Below, in pieces: positions 1 to 10,787 of a stretch of 10,787 nucleotides of DNA (its first letter is position 1; each line of letters starts with the position of its first letter). A model generated the notes under the pieces. The model saw only the letters and a program-made list of their open reading frames with translations, searched no databases and was not told where the DNA came from. Where the stretch lies: positions 1 to 10,787 of IMG/VR virus record IMGVR_UViG_2534681766_000003; one strand, written 5' to 3'. Made by a program: the position numbers and the translations under genes. The stretch is from a virus (Duplodnaviria; Heunggongvirae; Uroviricota; Caudoviricetes).

Positions 1-662
1 CCCGGGAAGTGCGGCGCTTCCGTCTGAGTGGCCACGGTCACAGCATGGTTATCACTGACCTGCCCGGGGTGGGCGAGAGCCGGGACAGAGATGCAGAGTA
101 TGAAGCCCTGTACCGTGACATTCTGCCCGAACTGGACCTGGTGCTGTGGCTGATTAAAGCCGATGACCGCGCCCTGTCTGTGGATGAGTATTTCTGGCGA
201 CACATCCTGCACCGGGGACATCAGCAGGTGCTGTTTGTGGTGACGCAGGCCGACAAAACGGAGCCCTGCCATGAATGGGATATGGCCGGTATTCAGCCTT
301 CTCCCGCACAGGCACAGAATATTCGCGAAAAAACGGAGGCGGTATTCCGTCTGTTCCGGCCCGTACATCCGGTTGTGGCCGTATCGGCCCGCACCGGCTG
401 GGAACTGGATACGCTGGTCAGTGCGCTCATGACAGCGCTTCCCGACCATGCCGCCAGTCCCCTGATGACCCGCCTGCAGGACGAGCTGCGCACGGAATCT
501 GTCCGGTCTCAGGCCCGTGAACAGTTTACCGGTGCGGTGGACCGGATATTTGACACAGCGGAGAGCGTCTGTATTGCCTCTGTTGCACGCACGGTTCTGC
601 GTGCCGTCCGTGACTCGGTGGTCTCTGTTGCCCGCGCTGTATGGAACTGGATTTTCTTCTGA
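1..662 (+). CDS. YfjP/YkfA/YeeP-family GTPase (50S ribosome-binding GTPase-like), C-terminal part; 5' end lies upstream of the window
   Basis: Open frame runs from the window edge to the stop at 660-662. The translation (…VITDLPGVGESRDRDAEYEALYRDILPELDLVLWLIKADDRALSVDEYFWRHIL…VVTQADK…) carries a DxxG-type switch region and an xxxD-type guanine-specificity region, and resembles the YfjP/YkfA/YeeP GTPases of E. coli CP4-type cryptic prophages as I remember them. Which paralog it is cannot be told from this fragment. Confidence 0.8.
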   Translation, partial: REVRRFRLSGHGHSMVITDLPGVGESRDRDAEYEALYRDILPELDLVLWLIKADDRALSVDEYFWRHILHRGHQQVLFVVTQADKTEPCHEWDMAGIQPSPAQAQNIREKTEAVFRLFRPVHPVVAVSARTGWELDTLVSALMTALPDHAASPLMTRLQDELRTESVRSQAREQFTGAVDRIFDTAESVCIASVARTVLRAVRDSVVSVARAVWNWIFF

Positions 663-745
663 ACACTCTGCCAGGGGAAATGCCTGATTACATTGCGTTA
701 ACCAACTGAAAACATGACCCCCCCCCTCATACCCACCTCTTTCTC

Positions 746-774
746 TTGCGTGACCTCCCTGCTGTTAATAGAAT
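746..774 (+). promoter_or_regulatory. Putative sigma70 promoter (-35 TTGCGT 746-751, 17-bp spacer, -10 TAGAAT 769-774), with predicted start site at about 780-782
   Basis: Hexamers with consensus-like spacing, read by eye in the intergenic region between the GTPase gene and the DUF968-like gene. The predicted start falls on the first GATC of the downstream cluster. Confidence 0.3.
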
Positions 775-778
775 AAAA

Positions 779-823
779 CGATCGATAAAACAGGTATCGA
801 TCGTTACTATCGATCGTTTATAG
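779..823 (+). promoter_or_regulatory. GATC cluster in direct repeats (CGATCGAT / TATCGATCG x3); candidate Dam-methylation/OxyR-type phase-variation operator
   Basis: GATC at 780-783, 799-802 and 812-815, three sites in 36 bp against an expectation of about one per 256 bp. The octamer ATCGATCG or CGATCGAT occurs at 779-786, 796-803 and 809-816, and CTAT / TATAG half-site-like elements flank the third copy. The layout resembles the agn43 (flu) regulatory region, which lies downstream of yeeP in E. coli K-12. Confidence 0.4.
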
Positions 824-928
824 TGGTTAATGGTCTGCGAAAAGGCAGTTGAATCTCTTCATCATGCAGAACGGAATTGCACAAAACGGACTGATACTTC
901 TCTGGCGGATGAGAGAGGGGAAGCATTT

Positions 929-1354
929 ATGTCCGGGAAAAACCACTTTACCCGGGAAAGTGACCTTGTGCCTTCGGTTCCTGCCACCAGCATCATCCAG
1001 GATAAAGCGAAAAAGGTGCTGGCGCTGAAAGTGGATCCGGAGTCGCCGGAGTCTTTTATGTTACGCCCAAAACGTCGCCGCTGGGTTAATGAAAAGTACA
1101 CGCGCTGGGTTAAGACACAGCCGTGTGCATGTTGTGGAAAGCCTGCTGATGATCCCCACCACCTGATAGGTCACGGTCAGGGTGGAATGGGAACAAAAGC
1201 GCATGACCTCTTTGTGTTGCCTTTGTGCAGAAAGCATCACGACGAGCTGCATGCGGATACCGTGGCATTTGAAGAGATGTATGGCTCCCAGCTGGAGCTG
1301 ATATTTCGTTTTATCGATCGTGCGCTGGCGATCGGCGTAATTACGACAGCTTAA
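929..1354 (+). CDS. DUF968-like phage protein with a CxxC…HH…C…HH zinc-binding (HNH-like) motif
   Basis: Six-frame ORF 830..1354. I prefer the internal ATG at 929 (MSGKNHF…) because it follows a GAGAGAGGGGAA Shine-Dalgarno-like tract. The motif …CACCGKPADDPHHLIGHG…LPLCRKHHDELH matches my memory of DUF968 (YdfU-like) prophage proteins. The alternative start at 830 would give 174 aa. Confidence 0.6.
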   Translation: MSGKNHFTRESDLVPSVPATSIIQDKAKKVLALKVDPESPESFMLRPKRRRWVNEKYTRWVKTQPCACCGKPADDPHHLIGHGQGGMGTKAHDLFVLPLCRKHHDELHADTVAFEEMYGSQLELIFRFIDRALAIGVITTA

Positions 1355-2065
1355 GTGTATGGAGCGCTGAGAAGTATGAATCAACAAGACTTGAATTTTG
1401 TCAGAATAGAATTACGTCGTGCGCTGTTTGACTTCTCTGGGGGGACAAAAGGGCAGCTTGAGGCTTTCACTGAACACCCACCAGCAGACAAAAATGCCAC
1501 TCCACGCCGTGGAATTCATCTTGTCGAACTCGAAGGTGATAAGGGACCACGCTTTGTTAACTCGCTTTCCGCGCCATTGTACGTGCAAGAAACACGTAGC
1601 CGCCCCAGGCCAATGCCGCCGATAAAAGATGTAGAATTTGAGTCCGCGCCGTGGCGTAGGGCAGTGTCCGCGCTTAGTGGATACCAGCAGGCTTGGTTGC
1701 GGTACTGTTACGGTTTTGACCTTAACTATACGCACCAGGTGATGATGTGTGAATACGTCTGGAAGGCTTATCAGAAATGCTTGGGTGAAAACTCACTTCA
1801 GGAGCGCGTAGTAAAAAAACTAATAGGCCTAGTATGGCTTGCAGGACAGGAAATTGCTGCAACCCGAAACAATGAAACCTATAAAGACTACGCTGGTGCG
1901 GCGCTGGCCCGTATGGTTAGCGTTGACCGTTCGACATGGTTGCGCGTCTATTCAGGCCACTGGGCTGGGTTAAAGGCCGCTTTTACCCAGCTTGATGAGT
2001 CTGCGCTGGCCATGGCTCTTGAATACTATGAGGATGAAGAAGCTCTCAAAGTGGGAGAAATATGA
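1355..2065 (+). CDS. Probable phage antitermination protein Q-like late regulator (QuuQ / phage-82 Q type)
   Basis: 236-aa ORF. Its GTG start at 1355 abuts the DUF968-like stop at 1352-1354; an alternative ATG at 1376 (MNQQDLNF…) is equally plausible. Size and position match Q-like antiterminators of lambdoid prophages: it follows a DUF968 gene as quuQ neighbours ydfU in Qin, and is followed by a promoter-like stretch plus a terminator and then a moron. The family assignment is from memory, not a search. Confidence 0.45.
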   Translation: MYGALRSMNQQDLNFVRIELRRALFDFSGGTKGQLEAFTEHPPADKNATPRRGIHLVELEGDKGPRFVNSLSAPLYVQETRSRPRPMPPIKDVEFESAPWRRAVSALSGYQQAWLRYCYGFDLNYTHQVMMCEYVWKAYQKCLGENSLQERVVKKLIGLVWLAGQEIAATRNNETYKDYAGAALARMVSVDRSTWLRVYSGHWAGLKAAFTQLDESALAMALEYYEDEEALKVGEI

Positions 2066-2160
2066 CGTAAATTTCACTATCTCCTTCAAACGCGCTTGCA
2101 AAATACAACAAAATAAGCCATATTGGAAGCATATTTGATATGTTGCCAAAGTTTTATAAC

Positions 2161-2183
2161 CCCGCCGACGAGCGGGTTTTTTG
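2161..2183 (+). terminator. Intrinsic (Rho-independent) terminator, tR'-like
   Basis: CCCGC (2161-2165), loop CGACGA, GCGGG (2172-2176), followed by T6 (2177-2182). It lies about 95 nt downstream of the Q-like stop. Confidence 0.55.
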
Positions 2184-2258
2184 ATATGCGACATAACCTA
2201 TAACATTTTTTATAAAATAAAATATAATTGCTTTACCATTATCCTGTGAGTTGAGCAA

Positions 2259-3044
2259 ATGTATATATTTGAATTGACCAAACCTGGCAACTGGCTTGAA
2301 AGTGAAGACAAAGAGTGGTCTTGGAAAATAGAACGGCTTTTGGACCATCTTGAATTTGCATTTTATGAGGCTAATGTTGCATTAAATTTATTTATGCAGC
2401 AGCAAAACAATCAAATAGAACAACAAGGGGTTTCGCAATTGCAATGGGAAAAAGAAATGCAAGAACGAAGAACCATCGAAACACTAGTTCGTGAGGAGTT
2501 AGGTTTATCCCCTTTTGAGAATCCTGAAAACATACAATTTGAGGTGGACGCGAGGTTTAAACGAGAAAAGTGGAGTTCTGGTGAAATTCCACGTAGCCAC
2601 AAACATTGTGTGATTTTTATTTATGCAAAATCTTTTCTTTATTCTCTTGATACTATTGATAAATTTATAAAGGTTATTTCGAATGAACCTTATGCTCCTG
2701 AGTCGATAAAAGCCCTACACGATCAGATAGGTAAAGATTTTCCTGATCTCAGAGGGGTTAGGAATTCAACTCAACACCTCGAAGATAGGGCTCGAGGGCT
2801 TGGCGCAGGGAGAGAACCGAAGCCTTTGAATCTCCAGCCTATAAGTAATACCTTCATAAATGCACCGCAAGGTGCTTTGATATTAAATAATCTGAATGGC
2901 ACCAAATTCGGGTCAACTATGTCTGATGGTCACTATGGTGAAGTGGACATTTCACCTGAATCGTTATCAAAAATGCAAAGTATTGTTCAGGGCGTACTTG
3001 ACTCGTTTAAGTGGGTTGGTAATCAGCAACACTTACCAAGTTAA
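2259..3044 (+). CDS. Hypothetical protein, 261 aa, strongly AT-rich moron of unknown function (candidate defence / abortive-infection / toxin gene)
   Basis: Long intact ORF in a block (about 2070-3130) whose base composition is visibly AT-rich against GC-rich flanks. A TATAAT -10 box sits at 2223-2228 in an A/T-rich upstream tract. A terminator precedes it at 2161-2183 and another follows at 3068-3090. I recognise no family; it has no Walker or HNH motif and a single R-x4-H (RNSTQH). Confidence 0.7.
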   Translation: MYIFELTKPGNWLESEDKEWSWKIERLLDHLEFAFYEANVALNLFMQQQNNQIEQQGVSQLQWEKEMQERRTIETLVREELGLSPFENPENIQFEVDARFKREKWSSGEIPRSHKHCVIFIYAKSFLYSLDTIDKFIKVISNEPYAPESIKALHDQIGKDFPDLRGVRNSTQHLEDRARGLGAGREPKPLNLQPISNTFINAPQGALILNNLNGTKFGSTMSDGHYGEVDISPESLSKMQSIVQGVLDSFKWVGNQQHLPS

Positions 3045-3067
3045 CTAAACTTAATTATTCATATTAA

Positions 3068-3090
3068 GGCTGCCATATGGCGGCCTTTTT
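3068..3090 (+). terminator. Intrinsic terminator downstream of the AT-rich gene
   Basis: GGCTGCC (3068-3074), loop ATAT, GGCGGCC (3079-3085): a 7-bp stem with one G.U pair, followed by T5 (3086-3090). Confidence 0.6.
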
Positions 3091-3137
3091 ATTCCCTTCA
3101 CTTTTGAGAGGATTCACAGCAATTAAGAGGGGGCTAA

Positions 3138-3524
3138 ATGTCCGATCCGATTTCCGGCACAGGGTTAGCTGCTGGAGTCCTGACAGGCGCTAGTGTTTAT
3201 GGACTGCTGACCGGAACTGATTACGGTGTTGTATTTGGCGCATTTGCAGGGGCTGTATTCTACATCGCAACAGCAGCAGATCTGAGTTTATCGCGTCGAC
3301 TGGCATATTTTATCGTGTCGTATATTGCCGGAATCCTTTGCTCTGGGTTGGTTGGCTCCAAGCTGGCAAACTTGACCGGATACAGTGATAAACCTCTGGA
3401 TGCTATTGGTGCCGTAATCGTCTCTGCTTTAGCCGTTAAAATCCTGACGTTTCTGAATAACCAGGATATCGGTTCGCTGGTGGCGCTTATAACGCGCCGG
3501 GGAGGTTCAGGTGGAGCTAAATGA
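3138..3524 (+). CDS. Gly/Ala-rich multi-pass membrane protein (about 4 TM), possibly holin-like
   Basis: 128-aa ORF with a strong AGAGGGGG Shine-Dalgarno sequence before the ATG. It has four hydrophobic stretches (GLAAGVLTGASVYGLL, VVFGAFAGAVFYIATAA, LAYFIVSYIAGILCSGLVG, AIGAVIVSALAVKILTFL) and a charged C-terminus. It sits where lambdoid phages place lysis genes, immediately before HNH/terminase. Its composition matches the phage backbone, not the moron. No endolysin gene follows. Confidence 0.55.
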   Translation: MSDPISGTGLAAGVLTGASVYGLLTGTDYGVVFGAFAGAVFYIATAADLSLSRRLAYFIVSYIAGILCSGLVGSKLANLTGYSDKPLDAIGAVIVSALAVKILTFLNNQDIGSLVALITRRGGSGGAK

Positions 3525-3541
3525 CCCGACAGCAACTATAA

Positions 3542-3763
3542 ATGCGCTGTTACGGAACAAAGTGGGAAGTCATCCGGGAGCGGATACTTAAGCGCGACAA
3601 AGGGCTGTGTCAGAACCATCTACGGCAGGCGATAGTGAAGCAGGCGTCCTGCGTGGACCACATCAAGGCGAAGGCCCACGGCGGTACTGATGAAGACAGC
3701 AACCTTGAAAGCCTGTGCTGGTCGTGTCACGCAGCGAAGACCGCGCGTGAGCGGCTCAAGTGA
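3542..3763 (+). CDS. HNH endonuclease (phage packaging-associated)
   Basis: 73-aa ORF with an HNH signature: …RDKGLCQNH…VDHIKAKAHGGTDEDSNLESLCWSCHAAK… It lies immediately upstream of the terminase small subunit, as in HK97-like phages. An in-frame stop at 3539-3541 fixes the start at 3542; there is no obvious Shine-Dalgarno sequence. Confidence 0.75.
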   Translation: MRCYGTKWEVIRERILKRDKGLCQNHLRQAIVKQASCVDHIKAKAHGGTDEDSNLESLCWSCHAAKTARERLK

Positions 3764-3889
3764 TAATTAATGTCATCATCAGACTGGGGAGGGGGAGGTC
3801 AAATCTCTGCGACCGCGCGCCTTCCGGACTGCCCGCCCCATCGTTTTTTTATACCCGCGAAAAATGAAATTTAACCAGGAGTGCCGCAT

Positions 3890-4384
3890 ATGGCTGGAAC
3901 GGCGGGGCGTTCCGGGCGTCGCCCCAAGCCAACGGCGCGCAAGGCGCTGGCCGGAAACCCCGGCAAGCGAGCCCTGAACAAAGATGAACCTGTTTTTACG
4001 CCCATCAAAGGTGTTGAGCCACCGGAGTGGTTCGCTGAAGAAGATCTCCCTCTCGCCACGATCATGTGGCAACTGACAACCAAAGAACTCTGCGGTCAGG
4101 GCCTGCTGTGCGTGACTGACCTCGCGGTGCTTGAGCGGTGGTGCGTGGCCTATGAGTTCTGGCGACGTGCTGTGAAAAATATTGCCATACAGGGCAACAC
4201 CATCACCGGCGCAATGGGCGGCAGGGTCAAAAATCCGGAGCTGACAGCCAAAAAAGAACAGGAGTCCGAGATGAGCAGCACGGGGGCAATGCTCGGACTC
4301 GACCCCAGCAGCCGCCAGCGTCTGATTGGCCTGGCGGGGCAGAAGAAAGCCACTAACCCGTTTCTGAAAATTATCGAATCATGA
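3890..4384 (+). CDS. Terminase small subunit, P27 family
   Basis: The N-terminus [34 protein letters not shown] matches the P27-family TerS signature (…GNPGKRPLN…). AGGAG lies 8 nt upstream of the ATG at 3890. The stop overlaps the TerL start (ATGA at 4381-4384). Confidence 0.85.
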
Positions 4385-6114
4385 GCCGGAAATCTTACCC
4401 CAACGTAAATGCTGCAAATCAGTATGCCCGGGATGTCGTGCGCGGAAAGATTGTTGCCTGCCAGTTTGTGATTCAGGCCTGCCAGCGCCATCTTGATGAC
4501 CTGATGGCGGAAAAAAGTAAGTCGTTTCGTTACCGCTTCGACAAGGACCTGGCTGAACGGGCCGCCAAATTTATTCAGCTGTTACCGCATACCAAGGGGG
4601 AATGGGCATTCAAGCGGATGCCCATCACGCTGGAGCCGTGGCAGCTCTTTGTGATCTGCTGTGCGTTTGGCTGGGTCTATAAAGGTACCCGGCTGCGCCG
4701 CTTCCGTGAGGTGTATACCGAAATCCCCCGTAAGAACGGCAAATCGGCAATCTCTGCCGGTGTCGCCCTGTATTGTTTTGCCTGTGATAACGAGTTCGGT
4801 GCGGAAGTGTATTCCGGTGCCACGACGGAGAAACAGGCATGGGAAGTCTTTCGTCCGGCACGACTGATGTGTAAACGCACACCCATGCTGACGGAAGCGT
4901 TCGGGATTGAGGTTAACGCCTCAAACATGAACCGTCCGGAGGATGGTGCGCGGTTTGAACCGCTGATCGGTAACCCCGGTGATGGTTCATCACCCCACTG
5001 TGCCGTGGTGGATGAATATCACGAGCACGCCACAGATGCGCTTTACACCACAATGCTTACCGGGATGGGGGCGCGACGCCAGCCACTGATGTGGGCTATC
5101 ACCACCGCCGGGTACAACATTGAGGGGCCGTGCTACGACAAGCGGCGGGAAGTTATCGAGATGCTCAATGGCTCGGTTCCCAACGATGAACTGTTCGGGA
5201 TCATCTATACCGTTGATGAAGGTGACGACTGGACCGACCCGCAGGTGCTGGAAAAAGCCAATCCAAATATTGGCGTGTCGGTTTATCGCGAATTTTTGTT
5301 AAGTCAGCAGCAGCGTGCGAAAAATAATGCCCGTCTGGCAAACGTCTTTAAAACAAAACACCTCAATATCTGGGTGTCGGCGCGTTCGGCGTATTTCAAC
5401 CTGGTGAGCTGGCAGAGCTGCGAGGATAAATCACTGACCCTTGAGCAGTTCGAGGGGCAGCCGTGCATTCTGGCCTTTGACCTGGCGCGTAAGCTGGATA
5501 TGAACAGCATGGCGCGACTTTATACCCGCGAGATTGACGGTAAAACGCATTACTACAGTGTGGCCCCGCGTTTCTGGGTACCGTATGACACGGTGTATAG
5601 CGTCGAGAAAAATGAAGATCGCCGGACAGCCGAACGCTTTCAGAAATGGGTGGAAATGGGCGTCCTGACCGTTACCGATGGTGCAGAGGTGGATTATCGC
5701 TACATCCTCGAAGAGGCCAAAGCGGCGAACAAAATCAGCCCGGTCAGCGAGTCACCCATCGACCCCTTCGGGGCGACCGGGTTGTCACATGACCTTGCTG
5801 ATGAAGACCTGAACCCCGTCACCATTATTCAGAACTACACCAACATGTCCGACCCGATGAAAGAGCTGGAAGCGGCAATTGAATCGGGGCGCTTTCATCA
5901 TGATGGCAATCCCATCATGACCTGGTGTATCGGCAACGTGGTCGGAAAAACCATTCCGGGTAACGATGATGTGGTGAAACCCGTCAAAGAGCAGGCAGAA
6001 AACAAAATCGATGGTGCAGTTGCGCTGATTATGGCGGTTGGCAGAGCCATGCTGTACGAGAAAGAAGACACGCTGTCTGACCACATTGAGTCCTACGGGA
6101 TCCGCTCGCTTTAA
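4381..6114 (+). CDS. Terminase large subunit (HK97-like)
   Basis: 577-aa ORF with a Walker A-like motif ([11 protein letters not shown]) and a Walker B-like motif ([10 protein letters not shown]), with size and position typical of TerL. Translationally coupled to TerS. Confidence 0.9.
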
Positions 6115-6125
6115 CTGAGGTAATT

Positions 6126-6308
6126 ATGATCATGCTGATTCTCGCGCCTCTGGTAGGTGTGCTGGGGGCGCTTTTGCTGGCGTATGGTGCCTGGCTGATT
6201 TATCCCCCGGTGGGTTTTGTTGTTGCCGGGGTGTTGTGCCTGTTCTGGTCGTGGCTGGTGGCGCGATATCTCGACCGTACACAGCAGTCTGTCGGCGGAG
6301 GTAAATAG
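6126..6308 (+). CDS. Small hydrophobic membrane protein (60 aa) between TerL and portal
   Basis: GAGG Shine-Dalgarno before the ATG at 6126. Two predicted TM helices. Its stop TAG (6306-6308) overlaps the portal GTG start (6308-6310), suggesting coupling. Confidence 0.5.
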
Positions 6309-7549
6309 TGTTCTTTTCGGGATTATTTCAACGAAAAAGTGACGCACCGGTGACCACGCCCGCAGAGCTGGCGGATGCTATCGGGTTGTCCTACGACACC
6401 TATACCGGAAAGCAGATCAGCAGTCAGCGGGCCATGCGACTGACGGCGGTTTTTTCCTGCGTCAGAGTGCTGGCAGAGTCGGTCGGGATGTTGCCCTGCA
6501 ATCTGTATCACCTGAACGGCAGCCTTAAACAGAGAGCCACCGGCGAACGTCTGCATAAGCTGATCTCCACGCATCCCAATGGCTATATGACGCCGCAGGA
6601 GTTCTGGGAGCTGGTGGTCACCTGTCTGTGCCTGAGGGGAAACTTTTACGCCTACAAAGTGAAAGCATTTGGCGAAGTGGCTGAACTGCTGCCCGTCGAT
6701 CCCGGCTGTGTGGTACCGAAGCTTAACAGTAGCTGGGAGCCGGTCTATCAGGTCACATTCCCGGACGGCTCAACGGATGTGCTGACCCAGGAGGATATCT
6801 GGCATGTGCGCACGCTGACGCTGGACGGTCTGGTGGGACTGAATCCCATCGCCTATGCCCGCGAGGCAATATCGCTGGCAGCAGCGACTGAAGAGCACGG
6901 TGCCAGACTGTTCAGCAATGGCGCGGTGACGTCCGGTGTGTTGCGTACAGAACAGACGCTGTCGGATCAGGCTTATGAGCGCCTGAAGAAAGATTTTGAG
7001 GAGCGTCACACCGGGCTTGGCAATGCTCACCGTCCGATGATCCTTGAGATGGGGCTGGACTGGAAGTCGATGGCATTGAACGCCGAGGATAGCCAGTTCC
7101 TGGAAACCCGCAAGTTTCAGCTTGAAGAAATCTGTCGTCTGTTCCGTGTGCCCTTGCACATGGTGCAGAACACCGATCGTGCCACCTTCAACAATATCGA
7201 AGAGCTGGGGCTGGGATTTATCAACTATTCACTGGTGCCGTATCTGACCCGCATCGAACAGCGGATCAACACCGGACTGGTACGAAAAAGTAAGCAGGGC
7301 GTTTATTACGCCAAATTTAACGCCGGGGCGTTACTGCGCGGGGATATGAAGTCCCGTTTTGAAGCCTACGCCACCGGGATCAACTGGGGAATTTACTCTC
7401 CCAATGACTGCCGCGACCTGGAAGATATGAATCCGCGTCCCGGTGGTGATGTCTATCTCACACCGATGAACATGACCACGAAACCCTCCGATGGCAGTAA
7501 AGCCGGTAAGCAGAAGGATAACGCCAATGCAGACGAAACAACGTCTTGA
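6308..7549 (+). CDS. Phage portal protein, HK97 family
   Basis: 413-aa ORF with a GTG start preceded by GGAGG (6297-6301). N-terminus MFFSGLFQRK…; size and placement between TerL and the prohead protease fit HK97-type portals. Confidence 0.9.
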   Translation: MFFSGLFQRKSDAPVTTPAELADAIGLSYDTYTGKQISSQRAMRLTAVFSCVRVLAESVGMLPCNLYHLNGSLKQRATGERLHKLISTHPNGYMTPQEFWELVVTCLCLRGNFYAYKVKAFGEVAELLPVDPGCVVPKLNSSWEPVYQVTFPDGSTDVLTQEDIWHVRTLTLDGLVGLNPIAYAREAISLAAATEEHGARLFSNGAVTSGVLRTEQTLSDQAYERLKKDFEERHTGLGNAHRPMILEMGLDWKSMALNAEDSQFLETRKFQLEEICRLFRVPLHMVQNTDRATFNNIEELGLGFINYSLVPYLTRIEQRINTGLVRKSKQGVYYAKFNAGALLRGDMKSRFEAYATGINWGIYSPNDCRDLEDMNPRPGGDVYLTPMNMTTKPSDGSKAGKQKDNANADETTS

Positions 7550-8177
7550 TGTACCGCTGAGTCTGAAATCTGTCAGTGACTCCGGTGAGTTTGAAGGGTA
7601 TGGCTCCGTCTTTGGTGTAAAGGACAGCCACGATGATGTGGTGATGTCCGGGGCATTTGCTGCTTCCCTACGGGCGTGGAGTGACAGAAAAGCGTTACCT
7701 GCGCTGCTCTGGCAGCACCGCATGGATGAACCCATCGGTGTTTACACCGAAATGAAGGAAGACGATGTCGGGCTTTACGTCAGGGGACGGTTGCTTATTG
7801 ATGATGATCCCCTCGCAAAACGCGCACATGCACACATGAAGGCCGGTTCGTTAACCGGCCTTTCTATTGGGTACGTCCTGAAAGACTGGGAATACGACCG
7901 GAGCAAAGAAGCCTTTCTGCTGAAAGAAATCGACCTCTGGGAAGTCAGCCTGGTGACGTTCCCGTCTAACGACGAGGCGCGGATCAGCGACGTCAAGAAC
8001 GCACTGGCCCGCGGGGAAATCCCCGAACAGAAAAAAATCGAAAGAGTCCTGCGTGATGTCGGACTCTCCCGTACCCAGGCCAAAGCATTCATGGCCGGGG
8101 GCTATGGCGCACTGTCCCTGCGCGACGCTGAGGATGTGGGCTCTGCACTGAATGCACTGAAAAATCTGAACTTCTAA
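7527..8177 (+). CDS. Prohead maturation protease, HK97 family (peptidase S78/U35)
   Basis: Six-frame ORF 7491..8177. The preferred start is the ATG at 7527, with AAGGA 8 nt upstream, overlapping the 3' end of the portal gene. Sequence (…GYGSVFGVKDSHDDVVMSGAF…) and position between portal and capsid are typical. Confidence 0.85.
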   Translation: MQTKQRLDVPLSLKSVSDSGEFEGYGSVFGVKDSHDDVVMSGAFAASLRAWSDRKALPALLWQHRMDEPIGVYTEMKEDDVGLYVRGRLLIDDDPLAKRAHAHMKAGSLTGLSIGYVLKDWEYDRSKEAFLLKEIDLWEVSLVTFPSNDEARISDVKNALARGEIPEQKKIERVLRDVGLSRTQAKAFMAGGYGALSLRDAEDVGSALNALKNLNF

Positions 8178-8191
8178 TCAGGAGAAATACG

Positions 8192-9397
8192 ATGGCGGTT
8201 GATATTAAAGATGTCGAACAGGTCGCGCAGGAGCTGCAGCAGAAGTTTGACGACTTCAAAGCAAAGAACGACAAGCGCGTGGATGCGATTGAGCAGGAAA
8301 AAGGCAAACTTGCCGGGCAGGTGGAAACCCTGAACGGGAAACTCAGCGAGCTGGAAAATCTCAAAAGCGACCTTGAAAAAGAGCTGCTTGAGCTGAAACG
8401 TCCGGCAGGTGGTGCGCAAAATAAACTGGCCACAGAGCACAAAGAGGCGTTTGTGGGCTTTCTGCGTAAAGGCCGTGAAGACGGTCTGCGCGATCTGGAG
8501 CGCAAGGCATTGCAGGTGGGCACCGATGAAGACGGTGGCTATGCCGTGCCGGAAGCACTGGATCGCAACATTCTCACCCTGCTGAAAGATGAAGTGGTGA
8601 TGCGCCAGGAAGCCACGGTGATCACTGTTGGCGGTTCCGACTACAAAAAACTGGTGAATCTGGGCGGCACGGCTTCCGGATGGGTGGGCGAGACTGACGC
8701 GCGCTCCCAGACTGCCACCTCAAAACTGGGACTGATTGAACCTTTCATGGGGGAAATCTACGGTAACCCGCAGGCCACTCAGAAAATGCTGGATGATGCC
8801 TTCTTCAACGTGGAGGCCTGGATCAACAGCGAGCTGGCGACCGAATTTGCCGAACAGGAAGAAATTGCCTTTACCACCGGTGATGGCACCAAGAAGCCAA
8901 AAGGGTTCCTGGCGTATGAATCCACCGATGAAACCGATAAGGTTCGTGCGTTCGGTAAACTTCAGCATATTGTATCCGGTGAAGCGACGACGGTGACCGC
9001 AGACGCCATTATCAAACTGATTTACACGCTGCGTAAGGCACACCGCACTGGCGCGAAGTTCATGATGAACAACAACAGCCTGTTTGCCATCCGTCTGCTG
9101 AAAGACACCGAGGGTAACTATCTGTGGCGTCCGGGGCTGGAGCTGGGGCAACCGTCCTCTCTGGCGGGTTACGGTATCGCTGAAAACGAACAGATGCCGG
9201 ATATCGCCGCTGATGCGAAAGCTATTGCATTTGGTAACTTCAAACGGGGTTACACCATCGTTGACCGTATCGGTACCCGCATTCTGCGTGATCCGTACAC
9301 CAATAAACCGTTTGTCGGTTTTTATACCACCAAGCGCACCGGCGGCATGCTGGTCGATTCGCAGGCCATCAAACTGCTGAAGATTGCAGCGGCGTAA
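8192..9397 (+). CDS. Major capsid protein, HK97 family, with N-terminal coiled-coil delta (scaffolding) domain
   Basis: 401-aa ORF with AGGAG before the ATG. The N-terminal roughly 100 aa are coiled-coil-like (…QELQQKFDDFKAKNDKRVDAIEQEKGKLAGQVETLNGKLSELENLKSDLEKELLELK…), followed by a capsid-fold-sized body. No separate scaffold gene is present, as in HK97. Confidence 0.9.
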   Translation: MAVDIKDVEQVAQELQQKFDDFKAKNDKRVDAIEQEKGKLAGQVETLNGKLSELENLKSDLEKELLELKRPAGGAQNKLATEHKEAFVGFLRKGREDGLRDLERKALQVGTDEDGGYAVPEALDRNILTLLKDEVVMRQEATVITVGGSDYKKLVNLGGTASGWVGETDARSQTATSKLGLIEPFMGEIYGNPQATQKMLDDAFFNVEAWINSELATEFAEQEEIAFTTGDGTKKPKGFLAYESTDETDKVRAFGKLQHIVSGEATTVTADAIIKLIYTLRKAHRTGAKFMMNNNSLFAIRLLKDTEGNYLWRPGLELGQPSSLAGYGIAENEQMPDIAADAKAIAFGNFKRGYTIVDRIGTRILRDPYTNKPFVGFYTTKRTGGMLVDSQAIKLLKIAAA

Positions 9398-9402
9398 TCA
9401 CT

Positions 9403-9430
9403 CAGGGGCGCTGAATTGCGCCCCTGTTCT
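9403..9430 (+). terminator. Strong hairpin (9-bp perfect GC-rich stem, 6-nt loop) just after the capsid gene; possible leaky terminator or RNA-stability element
   Basis: CAGGGGCGC (9403-9411), loop TGAATT, GCGCCCCTG (9418-9426), followed by TTCT and no long T-run. Confidence 0.4.
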
Positions 9431-9446
9431 GACAGGTGAAAGAATC

Positions 9447-10574
9447 ATGATCCTGAAACAAGATCTGAAATGGTCACCGGACGGTAAAGCCAGCGAAACT
9501 AATGCTAAATCCAGTGAAACAAACGCGGCGAAATCTGCGGCGGACGCACTTAATTATCGCAACCAGGCGCAAGTAATTGTTGGCGATAATATCGGTCTTG
9601 GCTCAGCCCCGCGTGATTGTCCTGATATTTCCGGCAACCCATCAGGGTATATCGGATTTATGCGCATTATGAGTAATGCAAAAGGCTTTCCATCGATTGC
9701 ATCCGGTGAAAGCAGTCTTACGGGGTTTATTAGTCAGGTAGATGGAACACCAGCGTATACAGGTGTATTTCAGGGATGGACTACGCGCTCGCTTTATACT
9801 TATCGCTGGAATCCGACAATAGGCCCGCAATGGACACGCCACGCAAGAAAAGATGAGGTTATCCGATTTCAGCGTTCAAGCGACACAAGAACCATCATTT
9901 TATCTACTGACGTTCAGGCGGACGGCTGTTACTTACAGGTTGATGCTGACGGTCAGTGGGGCGCATTTAACCCTAAAGCTGGTAGATGGCAACCGCTCGC
10001 AGTTGCGCAAGGTGGCACTGGGGCGAATGATGCAAGTACAGCGCGCTCTAAACTTGAAGTCATGTTTGAAGCAAAAACTGGCCTTGATGCGAATACGAAC
10101 TTAAACGATATAAAAGGTACTACAGCCGGTTTTTATTACCAACCAATGTCTGCCAACGCAAAGCCAGAACTAAATTACCCGATACAGCTTGCTGGTGCAT
10201 TGTTAGTGCAAAGAACTGGTGCTAATGGTAGTGATGGTTGTATCCAGAGCTATTTTGTATATAACAATTCATCAATTCTTTATAGAAGGATATATACCAG
10301 CACACAAGGTTGGAGTGTATGGAAAAAAATAGTATTAACAGAAAGAATTGAAGAAGGCGAATCGACAACTTACGTTTATTCGAATTACTCACCATCAGCG
10401 CCACGACTTCAGGTGTCAACATCTGGATTGTGGGGTTGCCATAACGGATCGTCATGGGTTCCATTACCTATTGGACAAGGAGGCACTAATGCGGCAACTG
10501 TTGATGGTGCCAGAACGAATCTTGGCTTAGGTAGGAACAACAGCCCTCAACTTAACAGTCTATTTCTTGGGTAA
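9447..10574 (+). CDS. Tail fibre-like protein, N-terminal about 374 aa; 3' end interrupted by IS1 (truncated gene)
   Basis: Six-frame ORF 9384..10574. The preferred start is the ATG at 9447, with AGGTGA 8 nt upstream. The N-terminal low-complexity tract KASETNAKSSETNAAKSAADA resembles lambda Stf and T7 gp17 fibres. Two GGTxA…AR(S/T)xL(E/G) motifs (AQGGTGANDASTARSKLEV, GQGGTNAATVDGARTNLGLG) are fibre-repeat-like. The last sense codon and the stop (10569-10574) are supplied by the IS1 terminus GGTAATGAC. Confidence 0.6.
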   Translation: MILKQDLKWSPDGKASETNAKSSETNAAKSAADALNYRNQAQVIVGDNIGLGSAPRDCPDISGNPSGYIGFMRIMSNAKGFPSIASGESSLTGFISQVDGTPAYTGVFQGWTTRSLYTYRWNPTIGPQWTRHARKDEVIRFQRSSDTRTIILSTDVQADGCYLQVDADGQWGAFNPKAGRWQPLAVAQGGTGANDASTARSKLEVMFEAKTGLDANTNLNDIKGTTAGFYYQPMSANAKPELNYPIQLAGALLVQRTGANGSDGCIQSYFVYNNSSILYRRIYTSTQGWSVWKKIVLTERIEEGESTTYVYSNYSPSAPRLQVSTSGLWGCHNGSSWVPLPIGQGGTNAATVDGARTNLGLGRNNSPQLNSLFLG

Positions 10575-10787
10575 TGACTCCAACTTATTGATAGTGTTTT
10601 ATGTTCAGATAATGCCCGATGACTTTGTCATGCAGCTCCACCGATTTTGAGAACGACAGCGACTTCCGTCCCAGCCGTGCCAGGTGCTGCCTCAGATTCA
10701 GGTTATGCCGCTCAATTCGCTGCGTATATCGCTTGCTGATTACGTGCAGCTTTCCTTTCAGGCGGGATTCATACAGCGGCCAGCCAT
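10570..10787 (-). mobile_element. IS1 insertion sequence, partial (right inverted-repeat end; continues beyond the window)
   Basis: 10570-10787 matches the reverse complement of the IS1 right end as I remember it: GGTAATGACTCCAACTTATTGATAGTGTTTTATGTTCAGATAATGCCCGATGACTTTGTCATGCAGCTCCACCGATTTTGAGAACGACAGCG… including the terminal inverted repeat. Confidence 0.9.
10585..10787 (-). CDS. insB: IS1 transposase InsB, C-terminal part (5' end beyond the window)
   Basis: Minus-strand translation ends …[29 protein letters not shown], with the stop codon complement at 10585-10587. This matches the IS1 InsB C-terminus. Confidence 0.85.

Follow-up and report, generated by a model that had tools for sequence, protein, structure and literature searches.

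The 10,787-nucleotide stretch of tailed-phage DNA analysed here (IMG/VR record IMGVR_UViG_2534681766_000003, positions 1 to 10,787; hereafter the window) derives from a decayed Escherichia coli prophage and carries a single cargo gene in one of its backbone slots. The gene is an intact open reading frame (ORF) at 2259-3044 on the plus strand that begins with ATG, encodes 261 amino acids and matches phrog_5322, a family of unknown function, with an E value of 1e-124. Upstream of it lies the backbone gene for a Q-type late antiterminator (1355-2065, plus strand; PF06323 Phage_antiter_Q, E 3.6e-37; phrog_304, E 1.3e-71), an identical copy of which in strain CD45 bears the RefSeq name bacteriophage antitermination protein Q. 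The first backbone gene downstream encodes a holin (3138-3524, plus strand; PF16931 Phage_holin_8, E 9e-35; phrog_198). In lambdoid phages, stx and other morons sit between Q, the late promoter PR' and the terminator tR' on one side and the lysis genes on the other. The PF06323 and PF16931 neighbours bear out the first-pass annotation of this DNA, which had placed the ORF between a Q-like regulator and the lysis genes and thus in the stx slot.

The cargo differs clearly from its surroundings in composition. The GC content of the block 2066-3137 is 0.378 and that of the ORF alone 0.387, compared with 0.499 for Q, 0.501 for the holin gene, 0.531 for the left and 0.546 for the right flank. The lowest-GC stretch of 1072 bp in the window starts at 2022 and is this cargo block. 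At third codon positions the GC content of the target ORF is 0.32 versus 0.60-0.66 in the terminase, portal, protease and capsid genes. Its codon-usage distance to the pooled phage genes amounts to 0.80, the largest of all genes in the window, while the head, packaging, Q and holin genes range from 0.19 to 0.49. An intact 261-residue ORF in an AT-rich block between GC-rich flanks had already been described from the bare sequence, and both base composition and codon usage confirm that description.

Comparison with sister prophages of E. coli reveals a common backbone around a slot with changing content. To the left the shared genes encode PerC, methylase, LexA-like, RusA, KilA-N, DUF968 and Q proteins, and to the right of the slot follow holin, holin, GH19 and, after further genes, HNH, terminase, ymfR and portal. 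The slot contains the target gene in strain CD45, a hypothetical gene of 85 codons in D2 (L088:4710-4967), a hypothetical gene of 198 codons in STEC309 (L087:4387-4983) and genes for a DUF2513 protein and a hypothetical protein of 264 amino acids in A8 (L089:3697-4970). In Nissle 1917 (L002:6432-9113) it holds a hypothetical gene and genes for an SDH-type protease, a small winged-helix protein and a DNA methyltransferase, and then the holin gene follows. The variable cargo suspected in the first-pass annotation is therefore real, and the target block is no fixed part of the backbone, since no more than 25 of 5426 complete E. coli genomes contain it at an identity of at least 99%. The 264-residue A8 protein and the 198-residue STEC309 protein were considered as distant family members and rejected as unrelated to the target, and neither the 85-residue D2 protein nor the DUF2513 protein is related to it; the alternative, uncharacterised cargos of this slot are further candidates of the same kind. 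In enterobacterial prophages, a family member with 34-100% identity lies between Q and the lysis cassette in 40 of 53 IMG/VR loci. The antiterminators in the IMG/VR loci belong to three types (ydfT type in 27, PF06323 type in 11 and DUF1133 type in 8), and the placement is kept even in a phage with a lambda-type Nu1/gpA head and packaging module.

The borders of the cargo can be drawn from these comparisons. Homology to the sister prophages ends at about 2182-2183 on the Q side and resumes at about 3065-3105 on the holin side; bounded by both breaks, the moron proper spans 2184-3065 (plus strand, GC 0.37). A sigma-70 promoter of its own is predicted at 2200-2228 (plus strand) with ATAACA at 2200-2205, a 17-bp spacer and TATAAT at 2223-2228, matching the consensus at 10 of 12 positions. 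Promoter-like sites are not in excess in this AT-rich stretch (4 found, 3.6 expected from shuffled sequences). Alleles of 40-100% protein identity retain a -10 box of the TAATATAATTG type some 30 nt ahead of the start codon, and the TATAAT promoter, which had been proposed at first sight, is credible because it is conserved in diverged relatives behind three unrelated types of Q. In the gap between cargo and holin gene a strong intrinsic terminator is found (3066-3092, plus strand), a 9-bp stem (3066-3087) followed by a T run. Its hairpin has a calculated folding energy (dG) of -17.5 kcal/mol and a z-score of -4.96, and none of 200 shuffled sequences folds as well. A GC-rich hairpin about 20 nt past the stop codon recurs in 29 of 34 distinct loci, persists down to 40% protein identity between alleles and shows compensatory changes at 3 of 8 pairs. 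Similar hairpins also follow the unrelated cargo of STEC309 and A8, and the terminator more plausibly shields the holin gene from the moron promoter than it insulates the cargo.

The hairpin on the other side of the cargo (2161-2182, plus strand; CCCGC-N6-GCGGG followed by six T residues) has a 5-bp all-GC stem at 2161-2176 and is weak by energy (dG -9, z -0.97). In the Nissle 1917 prophage, the Q of which is 92% identical, homology runs through this hairpin and ends at about 2183. An equivalent hairpin stands 30-105 nt after Q in 24 of the 34 distinct loci and occurs with all three Q types. For these two reasons we assign it to the Q module and not to the cargo; it is probably the late-leader terminator tR' that Q overrides. 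The earlier picture of a gene bracketed by two terminators thus holds insofar as both hairpins exist, but the upstream one is not an insulator of the cassette. A putative Q-dependent late promoter of the PR' kind precedes it at 2096-2135 (plus strand; TTGCAA, 17 nt, CATATT at 2119-2124), and the repeat of CATATT at 2130-2135 might act as a pause element. The combination TTGCAA-17-CATATT scores 8 of 12, under the threshold of the scanner, and lies within 118 bp that are conserved along with Q in the Nissle prophage, which carries different cargo. At the equivalent position, loci with a ydfT-type Q contain TAAATTTGAC..AACGATGGG, which may be similar to lambda PR'. Four loci (L046, L066, L069 and L083) share the sequence GTAAATTTGAC(G/A)(T/C)TAACGATGGG between their ydfT-type Q and the tR'-like hairpin; we take it to resemble lambda PR' in its -10 box, start site and pause element. 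Given a variable slot between backbone genes, a predicted promoter and terminator of its own and a deviant base composition, the block is by all features legible in its sequence a moron of the classical kind, consisting of one foreign gene and the transcription signals predicted for it.

The protein family turned out to be large, and the designation as an orphan gene in the first-pass annotation does not hold. In addition to the match to phrog_5322, 416 relatives were found in a database clustered at 90% identity, and an exhaustive profile search yielded 968 clusters at 50% identity, 435 of them with E values of 1e-30 or better. The best 150 of the 968 clusters are mostly 245-285 amino acids long, with few shorter fragments and none with an added domain. 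Full-length relatives with at least 50% identity occur in Klebsiella, Citrobacter, Enterobacter, Acinetobacter, Psychrobacter and Vibrio as well as in Chromobacterium, Limnobacter and Desulfuromonadales, and family members are annotated as hypothetical throughout. As had been remarked on first inspection, no domain is recognised: the target protein gave no domain match in Pfam (E up to 1) or NCBIfam. A sequence profile search of the PDB returned choline kinase and SRP54 at E values of 0.01 or weaker, which we take as chance, and no HEPN chain. The phage genome collection contained no match by DNA or tblastn; the occurrences of the family are therefore in prophages and IMG/VR contigs and not in isolated phages with sequenced genomes, and homology to Tai of phi80 is ruled out at the sensitivity of this search. 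Literature searches under the RefSeq accession and the PHROG number retrieved no papers, and no published test of the family's integron cassette was found. While the architecture and position of the moron are textbook, its cargo belongs to an uncharacterised family that is absent from PADLOC v2.

With few exceptions, the members examined share a sharply defined signature, R168-[N/D]-[S/T]-x-x-H173-x-[E/D]-[D/E]-R177. In the target it reads R168-N-S-T-Q-H173-L-E-D-R177 and is encoded at 2760-2789 (plus strand), with RNSTQH (residues 168-173) at 2760-2777. None of 63 sequences from the examined loci, including those with 34% identity, deviates at R168, H173 or R177, and the R-x4-H is thus not the chance occurrence that the first-pass annotation had considered possible. 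Among 58 distant representatives, 55-56 retain the motif, and the three exceptions look degenerate; N occupies position 169 in 42 sequences and D in 15. Near-invariant residues elsewhere are G10, F45, W105, G108, P111, A123, F126, D131, P162, T220, G224, W252, G254 and P260. AlphaFold2 modelled the protein with a predicted local distance difference test score (pLDDT) of 90 and a predicted template modelling score (pTM) of 0.84 from a first alignment, and of 97 and 0.91, respectively, from a deeper and more diverse one. The model starts with an N-terminal beta hairpin and continues with long helices (18-55, 60-81, 89-106 and 112-141), a helix at 149-160, the motif helix 164-178 that is kinked at H173, a small C-terminal sheet and a helix at 233-248. 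The predicted fold is thus a long helical bundle with a small beta domain composed of the N-terminal hairpin and C-terminal strands. With R, a polar residue, three further residues and H, the motif has the canonical form and spacing of the HEPN motif R-x4-6-H, in which the R is usually followed by N, D or H, and the motif of the Abi_2 family is exactly R-N-x3-H. Typical HEPN proteins dimerise so that two such motifs meet, and their RNA cleavage leaves a 2',3'-cyclic phosphate.

Members of the family occur in several kinds of mobile context outside enterobacterial prophages. In Vibrio parahaemolyticus (locus L091) the family gene is an integron cassette in an array of 14 attC repeats similar to Vibrio cholerae repeats. 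The ORF (8001-8786) is flanked by attC sites at 7861-7982 and 8790-8911, and its Shine-Dalgarno sequence stands 14 nt past attC. Four cassettes upstream in the same array lies a HEPN_AbiV cassette (3763-4389), and glyoxalase, GNAT and PNPOx cassettes are among the other neighbours. In an integron of Photobacterium sanctipauli (L005) the family cassette (2050-2835) directly follows a DRT9 cassette (275-1900), which encodes a full-length reverse transcriptase (E 2e-222) and is itself flanked by attC. Scored by arm complementarity and calibrated on background, attC-like sites abut the family gene in 13 of 31 genome loci compared with 0.8% in the background. Loci of this kind were found in Pseudidiomarina, Marinobacterium, Alteromonadales and Paraburkholderia and in metagenome-assembled genomes (MAGs) of Desulfuromonadales and Campylobacterales. 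No attC-like site was found at the window copy, which is accordingly not an integron cassette.

Further relatives reside on plasmids and in islands. Two different 12-kb Rep3 plasmids of Acinetobacter carry the family gene directly after Abi_2. A block of three genes, encoding a 177-residue hypothetical protein, Abi_2 and the family member, is common to both plasmids (L101:1879-4646 and L102:1606-4373) and could represent a mobile unit of defence, perhaps with pdif sites at its borders. Small A. baumannii and Proteus plasmids have the family gene beside toxin-antitoxin genes. The Psychrobacter plasmid pA53P1 (L096, NZ_MN657115.1) comprises 4168 bp with rep, mobA, mobC and the family member as the sole accessory gene. 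A Desulfuromonadales MAG has the gene flanked on one side by a RES-Xre toxin-antitoxin pair with an AAA_21 ATPase and on the other by a type I restriction-modification system. In Chromobacterium, and likewise on one metagenomic contig, the gene stands alone, inserted among housekeeping genes. No neighbour gene is conserved in the 31 genome loci, where the neighbour clusters outside Enterobacteria are all singletons, and both cassette and moron hold a single ORF; a conserved adjacent partner of the type II toxin-antitoxin kind is thus absent.

A self-sufficient module of 0.8 kb without partner that four types of mobile vehicle have acquired repeatedly, neighbours that often include Abi, DRT, restriction-modification and toxin-antitoxin genes, and an invariant site of R, H and acidic residues make the family a candidate for defence. 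On the strength of this genomic context we tentatively propose, with a confidence that falls just short of an even chance, that the product is a stand-alone anti-phage effector of the abortive-infection type. In a lysogen, or in the decayed element seen here, the TATAAT promoter of the moron would drive transcription of the gene, and without induction the hairpin at 3066-3092 would stop the moron transcript before the holin gene. Upon induction, RNA polymerase modified by Q would read through tR', the gene and the gene's terminator, and the protein would also be made at a high level late in the lytic cycle. Until triggered by an infecting phage, the effector would stay inactive. Catalysis would take place at the invariant R-[ND]-x3-H...[ED][DE]R site, which could cleave RNA in the metal-independent manner of HEPN proteins; this RNase step, proposed by analogy, is the more doubtful part of the mechanism. 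It is conceivable, if rather unlikely, that the protein is the first recognised member of a new and very widespread family of single-protein abortive-infection nucleases. Its predicted scaffold, a small beta domain into which a helical bundle is inserted, would then be previously undescribed, and the R-[ND]-x3-H...EDR site would be either independent of canonical HEPN or an extreme offshoot of it. The module of about 0.8 kb would shuttle among integron arrays, prophage late-operon slots and minimal plasmids.

Several observations weigh against a defence role or its RNase chemistry. The target protein matched none of the 5027 PADLOC models (PADLOC-DB v2.0.0) at E values up to 10, and the alternative E. 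coli slot cargos contain no defence gene known to PADLOC except the methyltransferase. Identity of at least 50% from Enterobacteria to Desulfuromonadales is unusually high for a defence gene. Several loci represent plain housekeeping contexts, and of 114 immediate neighbours in variable loci three match defence models, which is close to background. These are DRT9, an NsnB/AriA-like ATPase and a PD-T4-6-like kinase, the latter two at position -1. The association with defence genes is therefore a weak enrichment that we consider suggestive and not statistically compelling. Regarding the chemistry, 50 family members searched against Pfam at E values up to 10 gave scattered noise and no HEPN family. 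The profile-profile comparisons for HEPN covered two families, and hhalign returned probabilities of 2% for AbiV and 0.6% for Abi_2 with the motifs unaligned in both cases. Foldseek found nothing at an E value of 0.001 or better in PDB and BFVD, and in the model the motif helix is short, kinked and preceded by five other helices, unlike the usual HEPN layout of a four-helix up-down bundle in which the last core helix starts with the motif. Across Pfam, NCBIfam, PADLOC, hhalign and PDB profile searches no sequence or profile similarity to HEPN proteins emerged, so that the HEPN likeness is limited to carrying the motif and membership of the superfamily is not established. The same profile searches and the Foldseek comparison of the model likewise gave no confident match to a known structural or housekeeping family. 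As a side observation, hhalign paired the catalytic helix YARSFALSH of AbiV with helix 120-131 of the target (IYAKSFLYSLD, nt 2616-2651), which is conserved in the family as IYA[KR][AS]FLY[AS]LD. At 2% probability we do not rely on this pairing, which may have arisen by chance or may reflect a faint remnant of a HEPN helix that has degenerated.

Some of this evidence would equally suit a mobile accessory gene unrelated to phages, for example a small-molecule enzyme or a stress or fitness factor, that has settled in permissive cargo slots. The many loci in housekeeping contexts devoid of defence genes, the missing PADLOC match and the glyoxalase, GNAT and PNPOx cassettes among the array neighbours agree with such a gene, as does the very high conservation across classes, which resembles that of an enzyme with a fixed substrate. 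Integron cassettes and morons, moreover, carry functions of many kinds. However, the target has no recognisable metabolic fold or cofactor motif, its relatives recur beside Abi_2, DRT9, restriction-modification and toxin-antitoxin genes, and a conserved R/H/acidic site in a protein without partner is not what this explanation would lead one to expect. Being the sole cargo of a 4.2-kb plasmid also fits exclusion or addiction better, and we consider a function unrelated to phages unlikely.

Alternatively, the gene could serve the lytic cycle of its own phage through Q read-through, for instance by degrading RNA of the host or a competitor, by timing lysis or by counteracting host defences. Its position as the first gene of the late transcript in the 40 viral loci mentioned above, behind three types of Q and from 34 to 100% identity, is what a lytic helper would show, and in some beta-proteobacterial phages the family gene also adjoins lysis genes. 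On the other hand, most sister prophages with the same backbone lack the gene, it has a conserved promoter of its own, and in three loci (L020, L076 and L080) its orientation is opposite to that of the lysis genes. Outside phages, too, the family is common: it occurs in integron cassettes and on plasmids, and chromosomes harbour it as a lone gene. A role as lytic helper is accordingly quite improbable. Still more improbable is a toxin or addiction module that stabilises its carrier by means of an unrecognised antidote (an RNA, an internal start or autoregulation): RelE, YafQ and RES toxin-antitoxin genes adjoin the family gene on plasmids and islands, the minimal plasmid has no other cargo and the motif is nuclease-like, but the roughly 75 nt from tR' to the start codon and the 16 nt from attC to the start in cassettes leave no space for a second gene, no neighbour is conserved and no repeat or antisense feature was noticed.

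An effector of the proposed abortive-infection type would have counterparts among known systems. HepS of the Salmonella prophage Gifsy-1 is a single HEPN abortive-infection protein (PMC13043305; PDB 9OIJ). Like the target it is prophage-borne, occupies a lambdoid accessory slot and acts as a single protein without a partner or inhibitor gene; it is constitutively expressed, requires its R-x4-H and is widely distributed, often on prophages (PMC13043305). Tha from Staphylococcus aureus prophages is a tail-activated HEPN effector that must spare its own phage in the late phase (PMC11087260). It differs from the target in its Gram-positive host and in its family, and its trigger and self-immunity logic have been described. 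Such partner-less prophage HEPN proteins can sense a structural protein of the invader and cleave tRNA (PMC13043305, PMC11087260). AbiV (PF18728) and AbiD/AbiF (Abi_2, PF07751) are stand-alone Abi genes of the lactococcal type that are found on mobile elements and contain R-x4-6-H. Some relatives of the target have genes of these families as direct neighbours or share an array with them; in contrast to this proximity, there is no profile-profile relationship and no Pfam match between them and the target.

With respect to its site, the target resembles morons of the stx type, as it follows Q, the late promoter and tR', precedes the holin gene, has a foreign composition and is flanked by a terminator. 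Dual expression from its own promoter and by Q read-through is predicted for it as for them. It is, however, unrelated to Shiga toxin, tRNAs, nanS-p, porins and cold-shock genes, and its host element, unlike stx-type phages, is a remnant that lost lysis and tail genes. For the definition of HK97-type morons, PMC11364771 cites HK97 gp15. Integron cassettes have been reported as reservoirs of phage defence (Kieffer 2025 and Darracq 2025, as referred to in bioRxiv 10.64898/2026.03.17.712381). Relatives of the target are similar to such defence cassettes in being compact, of a single ORF and bounded by attC in Vibrio and Photobacterium arrays that hold DRT9 and AbiV, whereas the window copy has a predicted promoter and terminator of its own in place of attC.

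The element that carries the gene was considered a phage or satellite in the first-pass annotation. The window is instead a decayed, mosaic E. coli prophage, lambdoid with an HK97 head, of which CD45 contains the intact version with early and replication genes upstream. The left end of the window (1-950) stems from a different type of island and comprises a fragment of a GTPase-family gene (9-662) that is 100% identical to strain WP7-S17-ESBL-04; this gene is found in most E. coli. At a junction at about 948-950 the GTPase island meets the mid-part of the DUF968 gene, of which the C-terminal part is left (830-1354), and the early and immunity region of the prophage is therefore wholly absent. 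In CD45 the first holin gene and the HNH gene are separated by genes for a second holin, a GH19 endolysin and a DUF2514 spanin and by two small genes. These about 2.2 kb are missing from the window, with the junction at 3525-3541, and the adjoining HNH gene (3542-3763) is truncated at its 5' end (73 versus 116 amino acids). Having lost the region of the second holin, endolysin and spanin, the element is no longer able to lyse its host. The genes for the small (3881-4384) and large terminase (4381-6114) are followed in this order by ymfR, portal, prohead protease, major capsid, a tail-fibre fragment and an IS1 end. Directly past the intact major capsid gene, at 9384-10574, the head-completion and tail genes are replaced by the tail-fibre fragment; the match starts at about 9481 and is annotated elsewhere as prophage tail-fibre N-terminal domain protein. 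The 3' part of this fragment forms a second low-GC patch (0.37-0.40 at 10051-10500). The fragment is cut by a sequence at 10572-10787 (GGTAATGACTCCAACTTATTGATAGTG...) that runs off the window and that we take to be an inverted-repeat end of the insertion sequence IS1. This region occurs in up to 66 copies per genome, with many plasmid copies, which is consistent with IS1. The host element is thus a remnant without lysis and tail genes, and its exact arrangement is found in no complete E. coli genome.

Should the proposed defence role be wrong, the family would still be a large, conserved and mobile unknown that deserves a function. If it is right, the known repertoire of bacterial immunity would gain a compact effector family of 261-residue, partner-less proteins comprising about a thousand clusters, one that PADLOC v2.0.0, the defence catalogue searched here, does not contain. 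A very confident model without a counterpart in the PDB and a sharply defined motif make this hypothesis cheap to test. The natural history of the family is unusually clear, as the same module appears as integron cassette, prophage moron, sole cargo of a tiny plasmid and gene of a defence island. It would therefore be a good case for studying how single defence genes change vehicles and by what means the leading gene of a phage late operon spares its own phage.

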